Shown here in pieces: positions 729-27,148 of a stretch of 64,000 bases of DNA (positions are counted from its first letter, which is position 1; each line of letters begins with the position of its first letter). Source of the stretch: Candidatus Latescibacterota bacterium (GTDB lineage: Bacteria > Latescibacterota > UBA2968 > UBA8231); assembly GCA_965261395.1 (NCBI GenBank), contig OZ253462.1:1344001-1408000 (forward strand). Direction: 5' to 3'. Position numbers and translations under genes: made by a program. A model generated the notes under the pieces. That model was not told where the DNA came from, made no database searches, and worked only from the letters and a program-made list of their open reading frames with translations.

Positions 729-6394
<5,666 letters not shown>

Positions 6395-23250: not shown

Positions 23251-23584
23251 GGGGAAGGAAGAGATAGTTTGTAGTTGTGAAGGAGATGGACGATTTTTAT
23301 ATTGGCGAAGTTAAAGCGAGGAAGTGAGCGCGGTGATAAGACAGTGGATGCGAAGGAATCAAGCTGATTGCGGACTAAACAAAGAGGTGTAATGACTGAT
23401 CAAGAGATACAAGAATTGATAACATCTCCCAAGAAAATTAAAAAGAGGGAGCCTGCTGAAGGGTACAATGAAAGAGACAGCCACAGACGTTGCAATCTGG
23501 TATTGGAAGATGCCTCGGGCGATGAAAGAGTCCTTTCTGTTTTTATTCGTCAGAATATCTTTTTCGGAATAAGTAGTATTTGGC

Positions 23585-23613
23585 TTGACATATCCTCTTT
23601 ATCTTCGTATATT
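23585..23613 (+). promoter_or_regulatory. Transposase promoter overlapping the left TIR
   Basis: TTGACA-N17-TATATT. Confidence 0.7.
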
Positions 23614-23638
23614 TACAGTAAGAAAAGGGAGATACGCC

Positions 23639-24511
23639 ATGAACCTAATCACCATTTTTAATCAGTTCCCCGACCAACAATCTTGCATCGCTCATTTGGA
23701 GGCGATCCGCTGGCCGGAGCAAGCCTTTTGCCCACAATGTAGTAGCGACCGCGTAGCTCGCAAAGCTGAAAAAACGCTGGTTGGCCGGTGGAATTGCCAT
23801 AAGTGCAAGTCGAGCTTTAACGTGCTGGCTGGTACCATTTTTAGCGGTACTCAAATCCCTCTGCAAAAGTGGTTTTTGGCAATCAGCTTAATGGCCAATG
23901 CGAAGAAGAGCTTGTCGAGCTATCAATTGGCCCGCGACTTGGAACTAAACCAGAAAACGGCATGGTACATGCAACAGCGTATCCGCGCGGCAATGGCAAG
24001 CGACGAAGGGGCCTTGTTGCAAGGAATCATTGAGGCGGACGAAACCTATCTCGGCGGCAAGCCGCGCCACAAGGACAAGGACAACAGGCGCGGTCGTGGA
24101 GCTTCGGGCAAAACCTCCGTCGTGGGAGCCGTCCAGCGCAAGGGCGAAGTCAGGGCCGAAGTTACCGACGATACCAAGGGCGCGACCGTCTTGGGCTTTA
24201 TCGAGCAGTCCGTAGAGCCGGAAGAATCCGCGCTTATCACCGACGAGTACAAAGCCTACACCAAAGCCTACAAGCTTATGCCCCATCGCGTCGTCAATCA
24301 CGGTGAAGGCTTTGTCGATGCCGACGACAAGACCCTCCACACCAACACCATTGAAGGCTTTTGGAGCTTGCTTAAGCGAGCATGGTACGGCTCACACCAC
24401 AAGTACACCAAAGGCTGGTCGCCACTGTTTGTGGCTGAGGCTGTCTGGAAGTATAACCATCGCAAGGATGACGATAGCTTTAACGGCCTATTGAGGACTT
24501 GCTTCGCGTAG
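23639..24511 (+). CDS. IS1595 family transposase
   Basis: Zn ribbon CPQC...CHKC, HTH, 'IEADETYLGG', 'ITDEYKAY', 'HTNTIEGFWSLLKR'. Confidence 0.95.
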   Translation: MNLITIFNQFPDQQSCIAHLEAIRWPEQAFCPQCSSDRVARKAEKTLVGRWNCHKCKSSFNVLAGTIFSGTQIPLQKWFLAISLMANAKKSLSSYQLARDLELNQKTAWYMQQRIRAAMASDEGALLQGIIEADETYLGGKPRHKDKDNRRGRGASGKTSVVGAVQRKGEVRAEVTDDTKGATVLGFIEQSVEPEESALITDEYKAYTKAYKLMPHRVVNHGEGFVDADDKTLHTNTIEGFWSLLKRAWYGSHHKYTKGWSPLFVAEAVWKYNHRKDDDSFNGLLRTCFA

Positions 24512-24526
24512 CAACTTGACGCACAT

Positions 24527-24562
24527 CTCCTTAGTGTACTAAATTGTCAGTACACTAAGGAG
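24527..24562. repeat. Perfect 14-bp inverted repeat (operator or terminator)
   Basis: CTCCTTAGTGTACT-N8-AGTACACTAAGGAG; overlaps a possible promoter and the AGGAGG RBS. Confidence 0.8.
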
Positions 24563-24681
24563 GTATAGCATGGATGGTACTCTGAGTACTAACAAAAAAG
24601 AAGCGACTTACAAGAAAATAATATTTTTCCAGAAAGACCAAAAATATCAGATAGAAGACTATCTAAACTCAAAAGTTATAA

Positions 24682-25613
24682 GAAGCCGTCTGAAAACTAT
24701 ATTTTTTCTATTTGATCCGTTTGAGCAGCAAGTGGATCATAGCAATCTGGATCAAGGCTTCGCTATGGTGGGTCAACACCTCATAATCTCGGGCATGTCG
24801 GCGAAAATTCATCAACCACGCAAACGTGCGCTCGACGACCCAACGGCGTGGTAACACCTCAAAGCCGGGGCCTTGTTTGGCGACGACTTCCAAGTCTATT
24901 TTGTGCGTCTTTTTTACGTTAGCCACCCACGTTCGGATCGGATCGCCTCGATAGCCGCCATCGCCCCACAGTTTGCGTAACCGGGCTACGCCGGAGGCCC
25001 CCAAGCGGGTCAACACCTGCTTGAGGCCGTCCCGATCCTCTACATCGGCGGCGGTGACCACCACCTGTCTAAGCAAGCCCGAGGTGTCGACCAACAGATG
25101 ACGCTTGCGCCCCTTGACCTTTTTTCCGGCGTCATAACCGGTTGTTTTACCATGGGTTGCCGTCTTGATCGTCTGACTATCGACTACGCCAGCCGACGGC
25201 GTTGGAGCCCGTCCGTTGAGGCGGCGTTCCCGCTGGGTGAGTCGATCCAATACCTGCGGCCAGACCCCTTGTAGACTCCAGCGACGAAAGTAATCATACA
25301 CCGTTTTCCACGGTCCAAAACAAGAAGGCAACAAAGCCCAAGGACAACCGGTCTTGGTCAGATACAAAAGGCCGTTGACGATCTGGCGTCGATCCCGCGG
25401 TGGCCGACCCGGACCGTTCGGCTGCCATGTCGAAGCCGGCAGCAACGGTTCGATCCGACGCCATTGCACATCGGTTACATCGGTGGCATATTGCCTACTA
25501 GGCGTACTCATCATACGAGCCTTTCTGTTCAGATTTTGTCGCGAAACCTGAATATGGCTCGATGAGTACGCCGATTCAAATACCGGCTACAGCAAGGGTT
25601 TTCAGACGGCTTC
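24682..25613 (-). mobile_element. IS5-family element (IS1031-like) nested in the IS1595
   Basis: 16-bp TIRs GAAGCCGTCTGAAAAC / GTTTTCAGACGGCTTC; TAA target duplication (24679-24681 and 25614-25616). Confidence 0.92.
24708..25514 (-). CDS. IS5 family transposase
   Basis: 'Y.TD.TD.QW', 'TGCPW..LP..F.PW.TVY..F..W', 'DSQT.K', 'GYDAGKKVKGRKRH', 'RWVVERTFAW'. Confidence 0.95.
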   Translation of the reverse strand: MMSTPSRQYATDVTDVQWRRIEPLLPASTWQPNGPGRPPRDRRQIVNGLLYLTKTGCPWALLPSCFGPWKTVYDYFRRWSLQGVWPQVLDRLTQRERRLNGRAPTPSAGVVDSQTIKTATHGKTTGYDAGKKVKGRKRHLLVDTSGLLRQVVVTAADVEDRDGLKQVLTRLGASGVARLRKLWGDGGYRGDPIRTWVANVKKTHKIDLEVVAKQGPGFEVLPRRWVVERTFAWLMNFRRHARDYEVLTHHSEALIQIAMIHLLLKRIK

Positions 25614-25845
25614 TAAGAATTTCTCCATCATCAGTTGTTGTCATTGTAGGCAAAGAGATCCAATCTGTTTCCTGATCTCCTTTCCCATAACGTATTCTTA
25701 CTTCGTAATTTTTATTCGGAAACAGATTTTGAATTACTATCCCATTTTCGACCTGTCGAAAATTACTATTCCCAGTCGGACGAATAAATTCAGGTTCATC
25801 TGCTAAACGGTATTCTACATCAGTCCAAATCCGTTCATCAGCCAT
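25576..25845 (-). CDS. Small FN3-like passenger protein of the IS1595 (last 6 codons displaced by IS5)
   Basis: AAGGAG RBS; 'IVIQNLFPNKNYEVRIRY' FN3-like pattern. Removing the IS5 gives ...DGEILITFEFR* (stop at 24659-24661), 83 aa. Confidence 0.55.
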   Translation of the reverse strand: MADERIWTDVEYRLADEPEFIRPTGNSNFRQVENGIVIQNLFPNKNYEVRIRYGKGDQETDWISLPTMTTTDDGEILRSRLKTLAVAGI

Positions 25846-25997
25846 CGTCTAGCTCCTTCTAGTTGATGGTTAGGTGGCTCCAGTCTCGGTAACTGGGGCC
25901 GCTATTAGAGCGCAGCAGGTAGTTAGAACATATCTTTATCCTTAGTTCCGCGGTACACGGAGCCACCGGGCATTACAGCCCGGACTACCTGCTGCGC
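25840..25997. ncRNA. Candidate structured non-coding RNA(s) at the IS1595 right end
   Basis: Two hairpins that pair best on the + strand (25840-25871, 25873-25903) and a multibranch domain closed by a perfect 14-bp stem (25910-25923/25984-25997). Confidence 0.55.
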
Positions 25998-26012
25998 CTT
26001 TTATAGTGGGCA

Positions 26013-26041
26013 AAAGTACTACAGACAGACTACCAAGTCAA
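26013..26041 (-). promoter_or_regulatory. Inward promoter overlapping the right TIR
   Basis: Minus-strand TTGACT-N17-TACTTT. Confidence 0.5.
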
Positions 26042-26380
26042 GCCAAATACTACTTATTCCGATCTTTTTTATAGAAAATTTTTCTATTGGTTTGGTCTAT
26101 AAAACAAAAGATAAAGCGTTGGGGTCCATAACGCTTGTTCGCTACAATGGTCCGCACGGAGAAACGAGCCGGAATAAGGACGGTCATTACGCCAAGTCAC
26201 ATATACACCGTATAACTGCTGAGGAAGTTCAGTCTGGCATTATGCAGCCGCAAGAGAAGCACAGAGAGATTACAGAAAGGTATAGCACGTTTGAAGGCGC
26301 TCTCAAGGCTTTTTTTGACGATGGGGGCATAGTGAATGGTTTAGAATACTTCCCTAAGTTGAGTCAAATGGGACTTTTCG

Positions 26381-27148
26381 ATGGACACCAATAAAGTAAT
26401 CCACCTTCTACACGACAGAGCCAAAACGGGCTTTGACGTCTATGAGCGAAGGCCTGGAGCATATCAACTTATAATCCCCATACTTCACGAAGACGGTGAT
26501 ATGGTGGATATTTATTTGCAAGATAGTCCTAAAGGTGAAAACTATGTCCGTGTCTGTGATTTTGGCATGGCTGTTATGCGTCTTTCTTACACCTATGAAA
26601 TAAATACGGATTCCCGGCGGAGAATTTTTGAAAGCATTTTAATGAACAGTGGGGTTCAAAATGAGGAAGGAAACCTTTATTTAGATACTTCCCTTGAGAT
26701 GGTCTACGAGAGTATTCTTCAGCTTGCAGGTTGTGTGCAGAAAGTATGCAATATGCGCTATTGGAGCAGAGAGATCGTCCGATCTACATTCTATGAAGAC
26801 CTTAAAGAGTATACCACGACAGAGTTGAGAAAATTCGACCCGCAGCCGGACATCACGCCTATTGCCAATTATGAACTAATCACTATAGATTGGTCTTTGA
26901 GTTACAACAATCGTAAATTTTACCTTTTTGGAGTACGCGGAAACAGTAAAGCAAAAAGCACGGCTATCGCACTGTTGGAGCTCAAAAGAGCGGGTCTCCT
27001 GTTTACCAGTCTGGTAGTACATGAGGACATGCTGGAATTGGGAACTAAGGAAGCCGCCTATCTTACTAAGAATGCCGATAAGCAATATCTAAAGCTGGAT
27101 GATTTTCGAGAAGGCGTAGTATCCGATATTAGCAGGATTGCGGCATGA
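26381..27148 (+). CDS. DUF1828-like protein
   Basis: 'IIPILHEDGDMVDIYL...VCDFGMAVMRLSY' N-terminal pattern; possible nuclease-like C-terminal domain. AT-rich; overlaps the upstream gene. Confidence 0.65.
   Translation: MDTNKVIHLLHDRAKTGFDVYERRPGAYQLIIPILHEDGDMVDIYLQDSPKGENYVRVCDFGMAVMRLSYTYEINTDSRRRIFESILMNSGVQNEEGNLYLDTSLEMVYESILQLAGCVQKVCNMRYWSREIVRSTFYEDLKEYTTTELRKFDPQPDITPIANYELITIDWSLSYNNRKFYLFGVRGNSKAKSTAIALLELKRAGLLFTSLVVHEDMLELGTKEAAYLTKNADKQYLKLDDFREGVVSDISRIAA

Follow-up and report, generated by a model that had tools for sequence, protein, structure and literature searches.

Within a 64,000-nucleotide (nt) stretch of a Candidatus Latescibacterota genome (the window; positions 1,344,001 to 1,408,000 of contig OZ253462.1, assembly GCA_965261395.1), an insertion sequence (IS) of the IS1595 family carries a minus-strand passenger gene, or cargo, whose start lies within a pair of hairpins (25835 to 25906). 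The question raised by this locus is which strand the hairpins serve: whether they form a plus-strand antisense RNA of the SymR or ptaRNA1 kind that restrains a toxic or addictive cargo, as had been proposed from the letters of the window (the sequence-only reading), or whether they are part of the cargo mRNA. The interpretation that we favor, at a probability of roughly 45%, is that the two hairpins constitute the 3' part of an approximately 160-nt folded 5' leader of the cargo mRNA, driven from a promoter-like site in the right inverted repeat of the element and beginning with an 88-nt three-way junction. We prefer this reading because the layout of the right end is shared by related elements, no plus-strand promoter was called, and the two strands are equal over the whole leader. 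It is further supported by the apparent selection for pairing on the junction, by homologues (P0029 and P0110) which mark the cargo as a real gene family, and by control of initiation through mRNA structure being known in IS, for example in the 5' untranslated region of IS200 tnpA, as described in the portions of the source drawn on here (PMC4513863).

Two hairpins at the start of the passenger gene

Hairpin 1 (25840 to 25871), read on the mRNA strand, displays the Shine-Dalgarno (SD) sequence AAGGAG in its loop and holds the AUG paired in its stem; on the plus strand the same loop is an anti-SD, CUCCUU. Its 5' arm is AGCCATCGTCTAG (25840 to 25852) and its 3' arm is CTAGTTGATGGTT (25859 to 25871), with the loop CTCCTT at 25853 to 25858 complementary to the SD of the minus-strand open reading frame (ORF) that runs from 25845 to 25576. 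The start codon of this ORF, CAT in plus-strand letters at 25843 to 25845, is 7 nt from the SD. Sequence and fold therefore agree with the anti-SD loop over the cargo ATG that had been described earlier, and the second hairpin that had been reported with it, fully paired around a 7-nt loop and including three G-U pairs, was recovered as well. Hairpin 2 (25873 to 25903) has the arms GGTGGCTCCAGT (25873 to 25884) and ACTGGGGCCGCT (25892 to 25903); on the plus strand these form 12 pairs, against 9 and a bulge on the minus strand.

The predicted minimum free energy (MFE) structure of 25835 to 25906 on the plus strand consists of exactly hairpins 1 and 2, at -33.5 kcal/mol (z = -5.48), and none of 200 shuffled sequences was as stable. 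Five of its 24 pairs are G-U; two of these, together with one U-U mismatch, are located in hairpin 1 and had not been recorded before. The minus-strand mirror of the structure retains 19 of the 24 pairs, and the minus-strand MFE is -24.5 kcal/mol (z = -4.24). The idea that G-U pairs turning into A-C mismatches single out the plus strand thus holds within these 72 nt but fails over the whole 172-nt leader (25835 to 26006), where the plus strand reaches -81.0 kcal/mol and the minus strand -78.6 kcal/mol, with six G-U pairs on each. It is the addition of the three-way junction to the fold that removes the asymmetry.

The difference between -33.5 and -24.5 kcal/mol, with 5 of 24 pairs G-U, is counted as the sole positive argument for a plus-strand cis-antisense RNA, which would start within the cargo coding region at approximately 25820 to 25835, form hairpins 1 and 2, and pair through its anti-SD loop with the SD and AUG of the cargo mRNA to block translation. 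The absence of the asymmetry over the full structured region speaks against such an RNA, as does the lack of a U-run after hairpin 2 on the plus strand. The RNA may terminate at the three-way junction, beyond which the plus strand has the short U-run CUUUUAU; this run is present in the window only, being absent from both homologues of the junction described below. With the promoter, Rfam and cargo results that follow, we regard an antisense RNA at this site as unlikely.

A three-way junction with compensatory changes

The three-way junction (88 nt, 25910 to 25997), which the sequence-only reading did not mention, starts seven bases past the end of the hairpins. Its perfect 14-bp outer stem pairs 25910 to 25923 with 25984 to 25997 and encloses 60 nt, including two inner hairpins, GUUCCG/CGGAGC and CCGGGC-AUUACA-GCCCGG, the latter stacked on the outer stem. 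The fold gave z scores of -7.56 on the plus strand and -7.36 on the minus strand. The junction matched no Rfam family, no tRNA or tmRNA was found, and a scan for intrinsic terminators called it on neither strand.

Homologues of the junction were identified outside the element, in genomes G048 (locus L005, 1488 to 1573) and G042 (locus L050, approximately 1445 to 1560), in both cases where no IS is recognizable. Between the window and G048, 7 of the 26 pairs are changed on both sides (five in the outer stem and two in an inner hairpin, where CCGGGC/GCCCGG of the window becomes CCUAGC/GCUAGG), none of the 26 is broken, and two internal blocks are identical; these counts derive from a model-guided alignment, the outer stem having been misaligned by MAFFT. 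The G042 copy has the same inner hairpin, with CCACC before it, a third and different perfect 14-bp outer stem, and a longer interior. Judged from these comparisons of sequence, the junction is under selection for pairing. As neither the outer stem nor the conserved inner hairpin contains a G-U pair in any of the three copies, this part of the structure is uninformative on strand.

Further homologues were found neither in motif scans allowing up to 3 mismatches across 168 genomes of the phylum nor with a covariance model applied to 76 genomes of the family; exact-motif scans of genome and metagenome contigs, and a second motif run over the 168 genomes and viral contigs, were equally negative. 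The junction copies found are therefore the two in the window genome and those in G048 and G042, all other motif matches being in coding sequence or lacking the outer stem. A mobile miniature element was considered and rejected, since the arms differ between copies yet remain complementary, there is no consistent target duplication, G048 and G042 have a single copy each, and in the window genome the junction occurs only within two IS copies. No relic IS inverted repeats were found at the G048 or G042 junction loci. A switch by alternative pairing was also dismissed: GGAGCCACC (25959 to 25967) is complementary to 25873 to 25881 of hairpin 2, but 215 of 2,000 flank shuffles yield a 9-nt complement and neither homologue has one, so that the match is ascribed to chance.

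The surroundings of the copies differ. In G048, the junction is situated approximately 25 nt past the stop of a minus-strand two-gene unit, between convergent small genes, and in G042 it lies in an A/T-rich spacer approximately 670 bp from another transposase gene. On the plus strand, TAGAG or TAAGAG immediately precedes the stem in all three copies. Within the G048 locus (L005, 900 to 2200), stretches of 64 to 139 nt recur with 82 to 86% identity in G053, G044, and G031, which belong to the same genus, and those in G044 and G031 have IS1595-type transposase genes within approximately 0.4 to 1.6 kb. It may be, therefore, that the G048 locus was pieced together from IS-associated DNA as a mosaic.

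The copies also bear on whether the structures have any role in the leader at all, as the junction could be a captured terminator- or insulator-like palindrome or a single-stranded DNA hairpin that is carried along, with hairpins 1 and 2 incidental. The outer stem and conserved inner hairpin are purely Watson-Crick in the three homologues, as expected if both strands, or the DNA itself, pair; the position of the G048 copy just past a stop codon is terminator-like; and on the minus strand all three copies are followed by CUCU and an A/U-rich tract. Related elements hold quite different passengers, and so the capture of foreign segments is usual in this lineage. A plain terminator, however, would not be expected to hold two fully conserved blocks in its 60-nt interior or to compensate an inner hairpin. 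A terminator placed just downstream of the promoter-like site of the cargo would moreover silence it unless regulated, and hairpins 1 and 2 are each far beyond shuffled expectation. Structures that are merely carried along are, on this balance, an improbable explanation.

Promoter-like sites at the element ends

Promoter-like sites were scored against an Escherichia coli-type consensus, which may not be that of this phylum. In the right inverted repeat, TTGACT-17-TACTTT (26013 to 26041, minus strand) points inward and would place the start of transcription near 26006. At the left inverted repeat, TTGACA-17-TATATT (23585 to 23613, plus strand) matches the consensus at 11 of 12 positions and precedes the transposase gene. 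On the plus strand, the consensus scan called no promoter-like site between 24572 and 26300, a finding that weighs against an antisense RNA; the best candidate identified by eye, TTCAGG-16-TATTCT, matches at only 7 of 12 positions.

Four related IS1595 elements from the same bacterial family (L019, L020, L021, and L023, in G048, G050, G044, and G006, respectively) were compared with the element in the window. They range from 1,546 to 2,298 bp, encode transposases that are 70 to 91% identical, and have one or two additional genes each. At every one of the 10 ends of the five elements, an inward TTGAYT (once TTGCCA), its first bases inside the inverted repeat, is followed after 16 to 17 nt by TAYNNT, and the -35/-10 layout with this spacing is thus found at the right end of all five. 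The gene adjoining the right end reads inward in all four relatives. Given inward promoter layouts and inward passenger ORFs at the right ends, sense transcription of the cargo is the layout of the family. The passengers themselves differ and comprise a lipoprotein-like gene, secreted-looking proteins, and a restriction-specificity fragment, so that the lineage appears to swap its cargo. The transposase gene of the IS1595 copy in G048 contains an in-frame TAG.

In the leader interpretation, transcription would begin at the inward promoter-like site, the -35 of which occupies the inner end of the right inverted repeat. With the start near 26006, the passenger mRNA would open with the junction and then run through hairpin 2 to hairpin 1. 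The minus-strand leader with 30 nt of the ORF has a predicted folding energy of -78.8 kcal/mol (z = -5.98 against mononucleotide shuffles), and the junction, hairpin 2, and hairpin 1 are all present in both its MFE and centroid structures. On such an mRNA, hairpin 1 would display the SD in a 6-nt loop with the AUG paired and would probably dampen translation initiation. The junction would likely act as a 5' stabilizer, or as an insulator or attenuator against transcription reading in from outside.

A number of observations weigh against a leader. Over 25835 to 25906 the plus strand folds better by 9 kcal/mol, and all five G-U pairs are A-C on the mRNA; had the G-U pairs arisen by transitions from perfect stems, the chance of all five falling on one strand would by our own estimate be approximately 1 in 32. 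The right-end site has a -10 with only 3 of 6 positions in agreement with the consensus, and it went uncalled in the consensus scan. The leaders of three of the four related elements are short or unstructured (z = -0.26, 0.67, and 0.98), only that of L023 being structured (z = -3.16), which indicates that the folded leader belongs to this cargo module and not to the IS lineage. In G048 the junction is found between convergent gene ends and not in a 5' leader, and its role may have nothing to do with leaders. Finally, the contigs from sequencing runs that cover the element carry neither strand nor transcript-end information. Element anatomy, fold significance, the fold class of the cargo, the conserved promoter-like layout, and the compensatory changes in the junction are directly shown; the start site, the strand used, and the regulatory roles are what we infer.

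The passenger encodes a stand-alone FN3-like protein

The passenger gene encodes a stand-alone FN3-like protein of 83 amino acids (aa). Codons 1 to 77 occupy minus-strand positions 25615 to 25845; the final six (ITFEFR), with the stop codon, lie at 24659 to 24679, split off by a nested IS. The reconstruction in the sequence-only reading is borne out, as the ORF is cut after codon 77 and resumes from 24679 to 24659, and the ITFEFR terminus matches proteins P0001 and P0099, which represent the intact 83-aa form in the protein collection. P0099, a near-identical intact form, is present on 112 contigs. The 66-aa protein P0004 joins cargo codons 1 to 43 to the minus-strand translation of the three-way junction region, a sequence suggesting that another sample contains a copy of the element that was rearranged or has an internal deletion.

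The earlier description of the cargo as FN3-like rather than SymE-like was upheld. Its only Pfam matches were to fn3 and were below the gathering cutoff of 25 bits (17.3 bits for the intact form and 15.4 bits for the fragment). AlphaFold2 modeled the protein as an all-beta sandwich (pLDDT, 83.2; pTM, 0.70), and the best Foldseek matches in the PDB were FN3 domains, all of them weak (best E value, 0.028; none reached 0.001). An exhaustive HMMER search returned 96 proteins at an E value of ≤0.001, of which 92 are at least 335 aa long and match through several repeats; all three of the large matches that were scanned are rich in fn3 (1.9e-53, 5.1e-29, and 5.7e-31). The Atlas neighbors of the cargo are likewise fn3 clusters. 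Taken from the model and the sequence matches, the cargo is assigned an FN3 beta-sandwich fold and homology to bona fide FN3 repeats.

Two homologues of 85 aa, P0029 and P0110, share 30 to 35% identity with the cargo over the full length, with the same termini and conserved core residues, a likeness which argues that the stand-alone FN3-like proteins are a small family on which purifying selection acts. No further genome of the phylum yielded P0029, and no loci related to the cargo were found in genome or viral contigs.

That the cargo is toxic or addictive found no support: it has no PADLOC match, no toxin family in Pfam, and nothing AbrB-like, and the protein is a predicted soluble beta-sandwich, for which inspection of the sequence revealed no evident signal peptide. 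A target that is neither SymE-like nor toxin-like also counts against the antisense RNA. The cargo is disrupted in both copies in this genome and intact elsewhere, a pattern that fits toxin and nontoxin readings alike.

Anatomy and mobility of the composite element

The element extends from 23565 to 26061 and measures 2,497 bp here, or 1,562 bp without the nested element. It is bounded by perfect 26-nt terminal inverted repeats (23564 to 23589 and 26037 to 26062) and by an 8-bp target site duplication, ATCTTTTT, at 23557 to 23564 on the left and 26062 to 26069 on the right. An 8-bp duplication is typical of the IS1595 family. The transposase gene (23639 to 24511, plus strand; 290 aa from the ATG) encodes DDE_Tnp_IS1595 (PF12762; 6.3e-34) and Zn_ribbon_IS1595 (PF12760; 5.4e-08) domains, both above their cutoffs, and relatives with 51 to 91% identity were identified in 29 of the 76 family genomes (E value of ≤1e-30). 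The element belongs to the IS1595 family on the basis of its DDE transposase with an N-terminal zinc ribbon, its inverted repeats, and the 8-bp duplication. Transposition joints are visible in contigs from other samples, as an empty-site joint from 23556 to 26062 with 8 shared letters is present in X17 and a related joint in X13. That the regulated gene is a passenger within an insertion sequence, as had been stated before, is thus confirmed by the repeats, the duplication, the transposase, and the joints.

A perfect 14-bp hairpin with an 8-nt loop (24527 to 24562) separates the convergent transposase and passenger genes and may serve as a terminator; no T-run follows it. The 3' arm of this hairpin contains AAGGAGG, and 7 nt further on there is an ATG at 24570. 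Were the element intact, this ATG would open a plus-strand ORF of approximately 57 codons, antisense over the 3' end of the cargo, within a region that extends from 24527 to 24680 and continues from 25617 to 25676; here the ORF enters the nested IS and is 94 aa long, and it may be a shadow ORF.

The nested element is a 932-bp IS on the minus strand (24682 to 25613) with its own inverted repeats, which interrupts the passenger gene and is flanked by a TAA duplication (24679 to 24681 and 25614 to 25616). Its transposase (24708 to 25514, minus strand) matches DDE_Tnp_1 (PF01609; 6.8e-31) and DUF4096 (PF13340; 2.8e-29), and the element belongs to the IS5 family. The intact 1,562-bp form of the IS1595 element is seen in contigs of X16, X17, and X13 as a precise 935-bp skip from 24678 to 25614. 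By summed contig depths, a rough measure, the nested IS5 reaches approximately 1,500 to 5,300 in X13, the IS1595 element approximately 316, and the flanks 26, with many IS5 variants; to the extent that such depths allow, the IS5-family element is in X13 a far more abundant and diverse repeat than the IS1595 element.

A second composite copy in the same genome differs at 1 position in 2,497 bp and has its own 8-bp duplication, ATATAATA. The different duplications of the two copies imply that the composite moved once its cargo had already been broken. Both cargo matches in this genome are the interrupted copies and no intact one was found, which makes the cargo dispensable for transposition. The IS1595-lineage element is active.

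The run data consist of assembled contigs of four runs, three of them RNA libraries, from three studies, and these contigs break at the element ends; contig cover in the RNA libraries was not counted as evidence of expression. Among the sequences listed from the four runs, no letter differs between 25584 and 26177. Long contig pieces over 25614 to 26061 show no other letters, and a piece from X3 over 25610 to 26061 shows one. The element was recorded in eight studies by a sequence search listing. It is thus essentially invariant wherever sampled, and for this reason no covariation signal can be obtained in hairpins 1 and 2.

The element itself splits a plus-strand ORF (23368 to 23563 and 26070 onward in the window), the halves of which are in frame across the 8-bp duplication. 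The uninterrupted form of this site is present in other samples, and the interrupted gene matched no PADLOC model. The next gene, at 26381 to 27148, encodes a DUF1828 protein that matches the PADLOC candidate defense model PDC-M24B (5.8e-14).

Comparison with known systems

IS that carry passenger genes are already known, as is the control of IS genes through mRNA structure or antisense RNA. An addiction module resembling SymR or ptaRNA1 would be a new kind of IS cargo, a claim that the evidence does not carry. What remains is an active IS1595-lineage element whose signal-less, single-domain FN3-like cargo follows a leader of unusual complexity. Of most interest is the junction, which evolves by compensatory change, has no Rfam family, and occurs outside the element too. 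Were it a regulatory RNA, it would represent a minor new motif and a case in which an IS captured a gene along with its regulatory RNA. A bolder possibility, which we hold to be very doubtful, is that the junction and hairpins represent a new cis-regulatory or small-RNA class, limited to one genus among the genomes searched, that is used both chromosomally and by mobile cargo and gates an FN3-like protein spread by an active IS among symbionts known from several sponge metagenome studies. Such gating could work on the mRNA strand, through an attenuator that responds to a ligand or protein, or on the opposite strand, through a structured antisense RNA.

SymR is an Rfam family, and ptaRNA1 is reportedly named in the 2010 Rfam paper. 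None of the 4,227 Rfam models matched the window at the gathering score. At an E value of ≤10, the region from 25300 to 26400 gave five chance-level matches (E values of 1.2 to 9.9), to microRNA, HIV frameshift, and Bacillus small-RNA models, and none to SymR or ptaRNA1. The SymR/ptaRNA1-like identity suggested by the sequence-only reading was therefore not recovered, and the lack of a match to these or any other family is a further point against the antisense RNA.

In the portions of the published description drawn on here, SymR is a 77-nt RNA opposite the 5' end of symE, transcribed from a promoter inside the symE coding sequence, and its target is an AbrB-fold toxin (PMC1891008). A plus-strand RNA at the present locus, if real, would resemble it, as far as those portions describe it, in lying opposite the 5' end of its target, together with the SD and start codon there (PMC1891008). 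The two differ in that the RNA here has no Rfam match, its target is FN3-like and not of the AbrB fold, no plus-strand promoter-like site was called, and the locus is located inside an insertion sequence. The ptaRNA1 RNA is an antisense RNA on a mobile element (plasmid-transferred antisense RNA); as generally understood, it shares with the present case only the idea of an antisense RNA borne by a mobile element, and the region from 25300 to 26400 differs in not matching its Rfam model at an E value of ≤10.

Parallels, within what the cited parts of the two sources cover, are offered by IS200, in which structure in the tnpA 5' untranslated region controls initiation and the antisense RNA art200 is made (PMC4513863), and by IS10, in which RNA-IN and RNA-OUT constitute antisense control of the transposase (PMC5006887). 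The likeness lies in an IS gene being limited by mRNA structure at the ribosome-binding site, by an antisense RNA opposite the 5' end, or by both (PMC4513863, PMC5006887), and it is a point in favor of the antisense RNA as well as of the leader, although the antisense control documented there is of the transposase and not of cargo. The gene under control there, as so described, is the transposase, whereas in the present element it is a passenger located at the opposite end. This locus is related to IS200 or IS10 neither by sequence nor through Rfam.

Passenger-carrying subgroups of IS1595 are listed in ISfinder. The element in the window is like them in its DDE_Tnp_IS1595 domain and zinc ribbon, its inverted repeats, its 8-bp duplication, and the extra genes found in its four relatives. 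It is unlike other passenger-carrying IS1595 elements in having a stand-alone FN3-like protein as its cargo and, ahead of that, a folded leader of unusual length; this leader contains a covarying three-way junction which is known outside the element too.

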